In this document: positions 9,577 through 11,568 of the stretch, piece by piece
Position numbering within the stretch: the first letter of the stretch is position 1
Layout of the letters: every line of letters starts with the position of its first letter
Source: a virus
Lineage: Duplodnaviria; Heunggongvirae; Uroviricota; Caudoviricetes
IMG/VR virus record: IMGVR_UViG_3300029498_000044
Direction: 5' to 3' (one strand)
Length of the DNA: 13,541 nt
Notes under the pieces: generated by a model
The model's database searches: none
Seen by the model: only the letters and a program-made list of their open reading frames with translations
Told to the model about the DNA's origin: nothing
Translations under genes and position numbers: made by a program

Positions 9577-10242
9577 TCAAATAAAACCAGCTGCCTTCCG
9601 GCGTTCGTATTCCTGTTTCAGCCGTTCAATTGGCGTTGGCCCTTGCGGGTGTTTAGCCCCTTCCAGTTGTCGTCGCACTGGCGGAACACTCATCCCGTTA
9701 CCAACATGCTTTGCCCATTTCGTCAGTTGCCGTTCCGCAAGTCGTTTTAACTCACCCTGCGTCATCTGGCGCTCAATCCCTCTGGTACGCATTTCGAGGC
9801 AGATGTGGTACAGCACAGGCTGAGGCCACGGATATTTGTCGCTTCCGTCATATCGCCAGGACTCATCACGCCAGCGGCGGTACTCCTCCATCACAGCATC
9901 CACCGTCAGGCCAAATGGATTGGCCCCGCTTTCTGAAATCAGCGCCACAAACTCAGCCAGGTCCGGAGGCCATGTTTCACCCGCCCGGCAGCGGTCCATG
10001 CACTGGCGGCAGACCTGTCGGATTTGCTGCTCAGTCATCGCGCCAATCTGTGCAATCCAGAGCTTCGAAGGTGCGGCCCCGTTCTTCTGGGTCCAGCGGT
10101 TCGAATAAACCTCCCCCATGAGTTCCCACAGCTTCCAGACCGTTTCCGTCGCTGATAAATCCGTTTTCACGTTCCCACTGCTCACGTGCTGCCCGAATTT
10201 CCTGAACTGCCCGTGATGCGGTGCCACCTGGTGCTGCTGCAT
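9577..10242 (-). CDS. Lambda P-like replication protein (DnaB helicase loader)
   Basis: Aligns from memory with lambda P (PPDLAEFVALI, YPWPQPVLYHICLEMR). ATG at 10242 with strong GGGGGT SD. Overlaps the 3' end of the O-like ORF by 212 nt in another frame. Confidence 0.8.
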   Translation of the reverse strand: MQQHQVAPHHGQFRKFGQHVSSGNVKTDLSATETVWKLWELMGEVYSNRWTQKNGAAPSKLWIAQIGAMTEQQIRQVCRQCMDRCRAGETWPPDLAEFVALISESGANPFGLTVDAVMEEYRRWRDESWRYDGSDKYPWPQPVLYHICLEMRTRGIERQMTQGELKRLAERQLTKWAKHVGNGMSVPPVRRQLEGAKHPQGPTPIERLKQEYERRKAAGFI

Positions 10243-11071
10243 GGTTTACCCCCTTGCTGACTGGCTTAACCTGCGCCCTGACGTGATTTACGTGACGGGC
10301 GAATTTCTGCTCCCACTGAACCTGCGTGAAAACTTTCCCCTCCGCTGCCCAGTAGTCCCGGAAAGCGGCAAGTTCAGCAGGTGTAAATTCCGGCTCCGGC
10401 AAAGCCATCCCCCACAACGCAGCCCGTCGTCGAAAATCCGGCGACGGATGCCAGTCATCGACCATCGGAAATTTCCCGATGGGTTCGCTCAGTCCATCCA
10501 GGGATGCAGGTTCTGCTGCCTGCAACGGCGTACCACTCGACTCACTGGTCGGAGCACTCTCGCGCACGTGCGCGTTATGTGTGGGGTTTAATTCTTTATC
10601 TGTATCTTTATCTGTCGTGACTCGTCGTGACATGTCGTGACATATGCGTGACTCGTCGTGACACCCCTCATTCTGTTTTCGTAATTTTTCCCTCTCGCGC
10701 TGCGCTCTCTTGCGCTCTGCCGGGGATTTCGCGGTTTGTGAAACGTTGCCATTGTCCTCTTTCAGGACCTGGCGTTTTTCCCATCCGGTGATTAAATCTC
10801 CATCAAGTACCCGCCCCTGCATTGCCTGTAAAATTGAATCAATTACTTCTTCCGTCACATCAAGCGCACTTGCTAAATCTTCCGTCGTGACATCAATGTG
10901 ACCACGTAGTGACACGCCGTGACATGTCGTGACATTTCGTGACGCGCTCACCAGAAGGTGGATATACACTGCCATCACTGTTGCAATTGGCTGCCCTGAC
11001 ACCCTGGCAATTGTTCGCCACTTAGGGTCATTTGGCATGTCATGCCATAATCTGAGCCAGGCGTTAGCCAT
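10031..11071 (-). CDS. O-like replication initiator (DUF1376 / YdaU-like N-terminus)
   Basis: N-terminus MANAWLRLWHDMPNDPKWRTIARV. Two iteron arrays lie inside the ORF. ATG at 11071 with GAGGTG SD (GTG at 11077 also possible). Confidence 0.75.
   Translation of the reverse strand: MANAWLRLWHDMPNDPKWRTIARVSGQPIATVMAVYIHLLVSASRNVTTCHGVSLRGHIDVTTEDLASALDVTEEVIDSILQAMQGRVLDGDLITGWEKRQVLKEDNGNVSQTAKSPAERKRAQREREKLRKQNEGCHDESRICHDMSRRVTTDKDTDKELNPTHNAHVRESAPTSESSGTPLQAAEPASLDGLSEPIGKFPMVDDWHPSPDFRRRAALWGMALPEPEFTPAELAAFRDYWAAEGKVFTQVQWEQKFARHVNHVRAQVKPVSKGVNHAAAPGGTASRAVQEIRAAREQWERENGFISDGNGLEAVGTHGGGLFEPLDPEERGRTFEALDCTDWRDD
10614..10662. repeat. Iteron array 1: five copies of GTCGTGAC (one variant)
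   Basis: Copies at 10614-21, 10624-31, 10634-41, 10647-53 (GCGTGAC), 10655-62. Spacing 9-12 bp. Preceded by an AT-rich CTTTATCTGT x2 stretch. Confidence 0.6.
10884..10943. repeat. Iteron array 2: six copies of nnCGTGAC
   Basis: Copies end at 10891, 10902, 10913, 10923, 10933, 10943, spaced 10-11 bp (about one helical turn). Confidence 0.6.
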
Positions 11072-11142
11072 ACTCACCTCTTCTGATACCGAATCTTTTT
11101 ACTCACAAATTGCCGGAAGTGATCCGGTATGAATATTGCGAG

Positions 11143-11568
11143 TCAATGCACAGCCACAATATTTCCTGCAGGGCCACCACGATTCATCTGGTTGAAACCA
11201 GCGATCGCCACTGCGACAAAATCATCAGCGTCTCTCACCAGTCGTTCCCGCGTCTCCACCAGCTCCCGAAAATAAGCTGAACTGTGGCTGCGCATTCGGG
11301 CCACCAGCAGAGGCGGCATTGCTTTTTCGATCGCTGGTAACAACGCCTGAATTTTTTTAACCGCATCAGGAGTGTCTTTCTCCACCCAGCGGAAAATTTT
11401 CTGGGTATTGCGAGCCAGGGCTTCCGGATGGCTGTCGTCATATAATTCCGGGAACGTCATACCAAGCTCAAAATAAGCCCGGGTTATTTCAGCTGCCGGA
11501 ACTTTTTCACCGTCCGGATGCGCCCAGGCATTCATCGCCATGCGGATGTGCTCATGCCTGATTTTCAT
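11143..11568 (-). CDS. ydaT: YdaT-like regulator (cII functional analog of Rac-type prophages)
   Basis: 141 aa, MKIRHEHI...IVAVH. N- and C-terminal signature and length match Rac YdaT from memory. Sits between the cro-like and O-like genes. Confidence 0.75.
   Translation of the reverse strand: MKIRHEHIRMAMNAWAHPDGEKVPAAEITRAYFELGMTFPELYDDSHPEALARNTQKIFRWVEKDTPDAVKKIQALLPAIEKAMPPLLVARMRSHSSAYFRELVETRERLVRDADDFVAVAIAGFNQMNRGGPAGNIVAVH

Follow-up and report, generated by a model that had tools for sequence, protein, structure and literature searches.

A replication initiator gene (O-like) and a helicase-loader gene (P-like) in a viral genome share 212 nt out of frame, and we judge this to be a genuine, maintained overlap in which P has an independent start and the initiator tail and P form one cassette (probability about 0.8). 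The window, that is, the whole 13,541-nt stretch of DNA analyzed here, is a Caudoviricetes record from IMG/VR (IMGVR_UViG_3300029498_000044). Both genes lie in a Rac-type early operon encoding a repressor, YdaS, YdaT, the initiator, the loader, and DUF1627, DUF977 and DUF4406 proteins, with RusA and antiterminator genes further along. A further overlap, of 17 nt (11552-11568, minus strand), is annotated by PGAP between the YdaS-like and YdaT-like genes 5' of the initiator.

The overlap had been described in the initial annotation of the window, and we obtained the same coordinates when both ORFs were re-derived (Table 1). It contains 69 sense codons of O followed by the TGA stop. P is read in the +1 frame relative to O, with position 2 of each O codon serving as position 1 of a P codon. 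Because a TAA is present in the P frame two codons 5' of ATG 10242, this ATG is the earliest possible P start. The O and P genes of lambda (38686-39585 and 39582-40283) overlap by 4 nt, in agreement with the earlier statement that only a few nucleotides are shared there. Judged from the window sequence only, the presence of two open frames was not significant; upon synonymous recoding, O was open in 12% and P in 29% of trials. Thus, the case for an overlap beyond chance rests on conservation across lineages, and not on the window sequence by itself.

Table 1. Coordinates of the initiator and loader genes, their overlap and associated elements in the window.
Feature	Position	Strand	Description
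Initiator (O-like) gene	11077..10031	minus	348 aa from GTG 11077; ORF
Helicase-loader (P-like) gene	10242..9577	minus	221 aa from ATG 10242; ORF
Out-of-frame O/P overlap	10031..10242	minus	212 nt
O-dominant part of overlap	10153..10242	minus	O linker and conserved helix; P codons 1-30 passenger
P-dominant part of overlap	10031..10152	minus	First two predicted helices of the P folded domain (P aa 31-70); last ~40 O residues passenger
O stop TGA	10031..10033	minus	Made by P codons ACT GAG (Thr70-Glu71)
P start ATG	10240..10242	minus	Inside O coding sequence
SD-like AAGGGGG for P	10249..10255	minus	Within O coding sequence, 6 nt before ATG 10242
Conserved O helix, AVQEIRAAREQWEREN	10166..10213	minus	O aa 289-304; AF2 helix, residues 88-103 of C-terminal model
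Iteron cluster 1	10884..10945	.	Inside initiator gene
Iteron cluster 2	10604..10674	.	10-bp GTCGTGACAT-type units inside initiator gene
ATG used by PGAP as P start	10036..10038	minus	153-aa product; rejected as true start

We searched for related loci with a P profile. In 32 species-level loci, the upstream ORF entered the P ORF by 149-224 nt, mostly by 212 or 215 nt. The genera represented among these loci include Escherichia, Salmonella, Citrobacter, Enterobacter, Klebsiella, Pluralibacter, Phytobacter, Kluyvera, Scandinavium, Pectobacterium, Buttiauxella, Erwinia, Samsonia and Limnobaculum. Counted by divergent lineage, an O/P overlap of 149-224 nt was present in 24, which belong to more than 12 enterobacterial genera. 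The lambda-type relatives (L033-L036) have overlaps of 4-17 nt. Among 5426 complete E. coli genomes, 3188 (about 60%) matched the region, 658 of them had at least 80% coverage and the same arrangement as the window, and a window-like arrangement was also found in 80 IMG/VR contigs. The lineages are not independent of one another, and since their number under single-linkage clustering depended on the threshold (14, 2 or 1 clusters), counts on a minimum spanning tree were used instead.

The P ATG was found at the same aligned position in 24/24 lineages, and a GGAGG, GGGGG or GAGG-type element was present 5-11 nt 5' of it in all 24, in line with the earlier proposal that P starts at ATG 10242 behind a Shine-Dalgarno (SD) sequence. 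The O residue lying over this ATG varies among H, N, Y and D, which are exactly the residues of NAT codons, and the next codon always begins with G. Such a pattern agrees with selection acting on the P ATG rather than on the O residue. In all 24 lineages, the P frame contains a stop 3-51 nt before this ATG. The O stop has the same alignment position in L001, L002, L003, L007-L015 and L017-L019, and in more distant lineages it lies anywhere between about 11 codons upstream and about 7 codons downstream of this point.

The initial annotation had left two readings of the long overlap, either a genuine one that extends the O C-terminus or a frameshift that altered it. In the latter case, the gene would be degenerating, its end altered or extended by a frameshift or stop loss, possibly with impaired replication. 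In favor of this, the window comes from a Rac-like prophage region, a type of region in which decay is frequent; moreover, fusions of the O and P frames exist in database entries P0172 and P0161. Nevertheless, decay of this kind is extremely improbable, because the arrangement is the norm in the 24 divergent lineages and in the 658 E. coli genomes, the O frame is under purifying selection in the first part of the overlap (dN/dS 0.21), and the tail motif is kept on unrelated initiators. Together, the 24 lineages, the 80 IMG/VR contigs and the 658 E. coli genomes exclude a frameshift private to this prophage. The conserved layout thus speaks for the genuine overlap and against the frameshift.

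In P0172, translation starts in the O frame and switches near EERGG to the ...WIAQIG of P, and in P0161 the O helix is joined to the P C-terminus. These two entries, which could suggest a fusion, are frameshifted or deleted variants, or assembly errors. P0109, L027 and L030 were rejected as overlap evidence, as they are orphan P genes with no initiator upstream. Solitary P-family genes with a short N-terminus occur in Erwinia and relatives (L030, 2474-3043; L120, 2501-3070; L027, 2492-3118); they adjoin host genes (PTS EIIBC; a putative TtcA-like product) and may be remnants or domesticated loaders.

We then analyzed the loader. The P product matched Phage_lambda_P (PF06992) with 59.3 bits against a cut-off of 26, P residues 55-188 corresponding to profile positions 27-161. 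The similarity to lambda P, earlier placed near the N-terminus, was confirmed by this match, but the extreme N-terminus is not included in it, as the Pfam alignment starts at residue 55. The profile from A3 also matched lambda P chains (8v9t and 9oa1) at E 2.4e-6. Full-length homologs of P have 212-223 aa, with identity down to 44%. Family-wide conservation begins at about residue 31-35, and residues 36-68 are the best-conserved N-terminal stretch, near-invariant even at 44% identity. In this stretch, W39, W50, K53, N54, G55, P58 and W62 are invariant, W36 is invariant or nearly so, and M42, R49 and A64-G67 are nearly invariant.

An AF2 model of P, based on a 29-sequence alignment, gave pLDDT <50 for residues 1-29 and helices at residues 31-54, 60-68, 71-86 and onward, with a terminal helix at 204-217. 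The top three Foldseek hits were the lambda P chains in DnaB-lambda P (9oa1), with probability 1.0 over 194-221 columns. The TM-scores reached only 0.35-0.39, which is to be expected when domains are flexibly linked. In lambda P itself, residues 1-29 (domain I) form a disordered N-terminal lasso, and domain II begins at about residue 30 (PMC12661323), where the folded part of the window P begins as well. From AF2 and Foldseek, the lambda P domain order fits the window protein: a disordered N-terminal lasso, helical domains II and III and a C-terminal lasso. Judged by alignment and model, the 221-aa product shares the length and layout of lambda P.

This start differs from that in current records. 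RefSeq/PGAP gives P as a 153-aa protein (WP_000139457.1; 9577-10038, minus strand), by which the overlap shrinks to only 8 nt, and phage records give products of 153 or 140 aa. Protein databases hold the same gene as 221-223-, 180-181-, 153- and 140-aa forms, of which the 180-181-aa forms are annotated in Salmonella, Citrobacter and Klebsiella. The shorter forms (153, 140 and 180-181 aa) all omit conserved residues, an inconsistency that extends over thousands of database entries. If P were translated from ATG 10038, with an 8-nt ATGACTGA overlap, or only from ATG 10119 (Met42), with an overlap of about 89 nt, the long overlap would be an artefact of ORF annotation. Besides the PGAP forms of 153 aa in E. 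coli and 180-181 aa in the three other genera, this explanation has in its favor that Met42 is nearly invariant and that P codons 1-30 show a dN/dS of about 0.8-1.0. In addition, a survey of 338 genomes judged all co-directional overlaps >60 bp to be mispredictions, the longest real one being 56 bp (PMC2478687).

We nonetheless consider such an artefact unlikely. At residue 69, encoded by ATG 10036-10038, homologs have either M or L, and this position is preceded by 34 highly conserved residues, among them W36, W39, W50, K53, N54, G55, P58 and W62, all invariant or nearly so; this ATG was accordingly rejected as the P start. Furthermore, a helix is predicted from residue 31, before Met42; the codon-1 ATG and its SD-like element are retained in 24/24 lineages even though the O residues vary; and lambda P has the same length and aligns end to end. 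L010 and L018 offer no alternative start between P codons 1 and 43, and the conserved tryptophans are encoded 5' of codon 43 in these lineages as well. By the alignments, the 153-aa RefSeq P is too short, having 68 conserved residues removed, and by the model it drops the first two helices of the folded domain. Further initiation at the nearly invariant Met42 may occur, since P codons 1-30 are almost without amino-acid constraint (dN/dS 0.76-1.0).

The initiator, for which PGAP uses ATG 11071 as the start (346 aa), begins with a replisome-organiser-type region, continues with a DnaT-like domain and ends in a tail. Its only Pfam domain was the DnaT domain PF17948 at aa 203-269 (E 9.6e-18; 64.1 bits against a cut-off of 25). 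The lambda O family, PF04492 (Phage_rep_O), was not matched by the window initiator, and is present in other tail-bearing initiators (L020 and P0196). Seven 10-bp-phased copies of the GTCGTGACAT-type iteron are arranged in two clusters inside the gene. The internal iterons and the lack of a lambda O match indicate an initiator with an internal origin that is O-like in role, not in family. The label "O-like" in the initial annotation therefore holds for the role and the iterons within the gene, but not for the domain, which is DnaT-like.

Compared with the initiator of phage vB_EcoS-689R5, the window initiator has a 7-residue insertion, TCHGVSL (aa 49-55; 10913-10933, minus strand). As this insertion falls inside the iteron cluster at 10884-10945, variation in iteron copy number alters the amino-acid sequence of the initiator.

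In the AF2 model of the initiator C-terminus, the DnaT domain was confident (block-mean pLDDT 75-89) and was followed by a low-confidence linker and then an isolated helix at O aa 289-304. A conserved helix, SRAVQEIRAAREQWE, is encoded in the O-constrained stretch upstream of nt ~10152, and its S/R/A/V/Q/I/A/W positions are invariant or near-invariant in alignment A4. For O aa 307-348, pLDDT was <50 and no secondary structure was predicted. The window O ends in ...LDCTDWRDD (10031-10066, minus strand), lambda O (L004) ends in ...LDLTNTDWIYGVDL, and its relatives L033 and L034 end in ...NNTDWIDGVFDE. This resemblance between the ends of the window O and lambda O may be coincidence; in the window, the WIAQIG motif of P dictates the O letters.

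To compare the two frames, dN/dS was calculated by the Nei-Gojobori method in three divergence classes. Over the first ~35 P codons, O-frame dN/dS was about 0.21 in the close and mid classes and 0.48 in the far class, and P-frame dN/dS was 0.76-1.0. Over the last ~35 codons, O-frame dN/dS was 2-20 and P-frame dN/dS was 0.007-0.13. The switch in selection, at which variability moves from O position 3 to P position 3, lies at about P codon 30 (nt ~10152). Similarly, when changes on the minimum spanning tree were classified, those synonymous in O and nonsynonymous in P were 1.42 times as frequent as expected within the first part of the overlap, and those of the opposite kind 0.71 times; the corresponding ratios for the second part were 0.43 and 2.71. 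O is thus constrained over the first ~90 nt of the overlap and P over the last ~120 nt.

Purifying selection was not found on both frames over the same nucleotides; instead, constraint is partitioned along the overlap. The poorly conserved passenger codons 1-30 of P lie over the O helix. At the other end, the LDPEER and LDxxD[W/R] motifs in the O tail are dictated by the P residues RWTQKNG and WIAQIG, respectively, and whether W or R ends the latter motif is a consequence of the synonymous Ile codon used in P. According to the sequence comparison and the models, the disordered, tolerant segment of each protein covers the constrained segment of the other. The earlier suggestion that a genuine overlap would have both frames conserved therefore holds for the two open frames, for the start of P and, approximately, for the end of O, but not for simultaneous amino-acid constraint. 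Likewise, the O C-terminal 70 aa, about whose conservation the initial annotation had asked, are conserved in their first part with the helix (dN/dS ~0.21), but the last ~40 residues are passenger.

We next examined whether the O frame is kept open by selection. With P fixed and its codons redrawn from local usage, about 24% of trials per lineage left O open through the second half of the overlap. With O fixed and recoded, the first 35 P codons were open in about 57% of trials, and the ATG survived in about 40% per lineage. At the stop-prone P codons 43, 47 and 56, 0/9 synonymous changes on minimum spanning tree edges involved T, compared with 59% of such changes in non-overlapping P (P ~3e-4, from 0.41^9; P=1.4e-4 with n=10 when a change at codon 59 is included). 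In none of the lineages is the O frame closed before P codon 58. The T counts and the absence of earlier closure indicate that O is selected to reach at least ~175 nt into P, with its last dozen residues free to vary. Four-fold sites of P were slightly less variable in the second half of the overlap (entropy 1.17 bits) than in non-overlapping P (1.39 bits), a difference that was not significant (p=0.089). Evidence from this comparison for selection on the O tail past the helix is weak.

Both genes might be translated while the O tail, including the helix, has no function, the overlap being kept by descent and by chance with respect to stop codons, and the helix being conserved for another reason, such as P translation signals. 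Consistent with this, conserved P residues fully explain the last ~40 O residues (LDxxD[W/R] arises from WIAQIG), the four-fold-site test gave no significant result, and the O stop drifts over the range given above. However, O-frame dN/dS is 0.21 in the first 35 codons, where O-synonymous/P-nonsynonymous changes are raised 1.4-fold and the reverse class is lowered to 0.7-fold; a stop-creating T was never fixed before P codon 58 (P ~3e-4); and initiators partnered with a DnaC-like loader have no tail. As for translation signals, RNAalifold with 14 lineages predicted 0 pairs around the P ribosome-binding site, that is, no conserved RNA structure, and a single-sequence fold of this site gave z = -0.75. 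A functionless tail therefore has only a small probability in our estimation. An RNA structure coupling O translation to P initiation was rejected on the same two folding results.

Because P is in the +1 frame of O and the two share a long window, programmed +1 ribosomal frameshifting could in principle produce an O-P fusion, and the overlap would exist for that purpose. We regard this as highly improbable, given that P has its own conserved SD-like element and ATG, that a P-frame stop precedes this ATG by 3-51 nt in every lineage, and that there is no conserved structure around the P start, which was the region folded.

The genuine overlap also appears to mark the edge of a cassette. Otherwise unrelated initiators terminate in the motif S-x-A-x-Q-x-[IFL]-R-A-x-R/E-x-W with a Gly-rich acidic tail after it. 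Tail-bearing initiators have at least four architectures; they include DnaT-only, DUF1376+DnaT, DUF1376, Phage_rep_O, and HTH_36/DnaD_N with a lambda-O-C-like domain, as well as proteins without any Pfam domain. In L022 and L031, a lambda-O-like C-domain is present and the tail is still added. In tail-bearing initiators that lack the DnaT domain, homology to the window O begins between 12 residues before and 9 residues after the P ATG. The tail is missing from K-12 YdaU (DUF1376), whose partner is the DnaC/IstB-like YdaV, and these two genes are separated by a 6-nt gap, with no overlap. These sequence relationships indicate that the O tail and P travel together.

Tail-search hits in repeat-rich unrelated proteins (Listeria-Bacteroides repeats) were discarded as compositional. 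P0160, P0166 and P0168, which are partial DnaT-domain proteins, were rejected as tail-less variants, as they are truncated at contig ends. A second mosaic joint is present in E. coli near 10600, in the middle of the initiator gene and immediately beyond the second iteron cluster. The N-terminal 150 aa of the initiator are shared, at 87% identity, by phages 689R5, Tritos and Evi, in which the C-terminal half is unrelated and no helicase loader is annotated downstream (joint loci L117, 2630-3700, and L118, 2629-3699).

From these observations, we propose that the initiator would be translated through to its TGA (10033-10031) and that the loader would initiate separately at ATG 10242, using its own SD element inside the initiator gene. 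The overlap would then represent a division of labour rather than 212 nt under double constraint. The disordered N-terminal ~30 residues of P, which by position would correspond to lambda P domain I, would be laid over the C-terminal helix of the initiator, and the first helices of the P folded domain would likewise be covered by the ~40 disordered residues at the initiator's end. The tail and P would move as a cassette whose left edge is the P start, so that any initiator lying upstream would read into it and gain the tail.

Concerning the role of the helix, lambda O is considered to bind P through its C-terminal region, and lambda P to bind O through its N-terminal portion (PMC6022878); the O-P contact was not resolved in a cryo-EM study (PMC12661323). 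From the strict co-inheritance of the helix with P and the analogy with lambda, we infer that the conserved helix may serve as the peptide through which P-DnaB is recruited to the origin-bound initiator. Being encoded inside the P gene, it would hold the docking peptide and the loader together during mosaic recombination. A broader version of this proposal, which we offer tentatively and consider somewhat doubtful, is that the 5' end of P carries, in the -1 frame, a portable C-terminal adaptor (helix plus disordered tail) for whichever initiator lies upstream, the overlap being a linkage device that would make initiators interchangeable without ever parting the docking peptide from its loader.

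The arrangement resembles lambda O-P in that an initiator gene with internal origin iterons is directly followed by a lambda-P-family loader of the same length and fold, and in that the C-terminal part of the initiator moves with the loader in mosaics. It differs from the 4-nt ATGA overlap of lambda in its length and frame, and from lambda O (PF04492) in that the window initiator has a DnaT-like domain with an extra helix and tail. The ydaU-ydaV pair of the K-12 Rac prophage occupies the same position in the same prophage type (ydaS-ydaT-initiator-loader-ydaW), and the DUF1376 family of YdaU is shared by some tail-bearing initiators; however, YdaV is a DnaC/IstB-type AAA+ loader, unlike the window P.

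Long out-of-frame overlaps are known in phages, as in lambda Rz/Rz1 and the overlapping genes of phiX174. As in those cases, one stretch of DNA here encodes two proteins in different frames, with disorder-prone segments in the overlap. By contrast with them, the window overlap joins two old homologous genes tail to head, with no new gene embedded in an old one; its constraint is partitioned along its length, and it coincides with a recombination-cassette boundary. Compared with a conserved co-directional tail-to-head overlap in Enterobacteria, it has about four times the length and is carried by mobile prophage DNA.

The lambda P-family loader, the DnaT-domain initiator and out-of-frame phage overlaps are parts that are already known. 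Our literature search found no description of a conserved ~212-nt initiator/loader overlap, nor of partitioned constraint or a tail-plus-P cassette at such an overlap.

Taken together, these findings make the O/P overlap a well-supported exception to the rule that co-directional overlaps >60 bp are mispredictions, a rule that appears to have led to the RefSeq truncation of P (PMC2478687; WP_000139457.1). As judged from the sequence, the replication genes of the prophage are intact, which answers the concern, raised when the overlap was initially annotated, over whether the prophage can replicate. The overlap offers a clean natural example of how two frames can be tolerated, by laying disordered segments over constrained ones. 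It also points to a short candidate docking helix between initiator and loader, and suggests a mechanism by which interacting partners may be kept linked in mosaic phage genomes.
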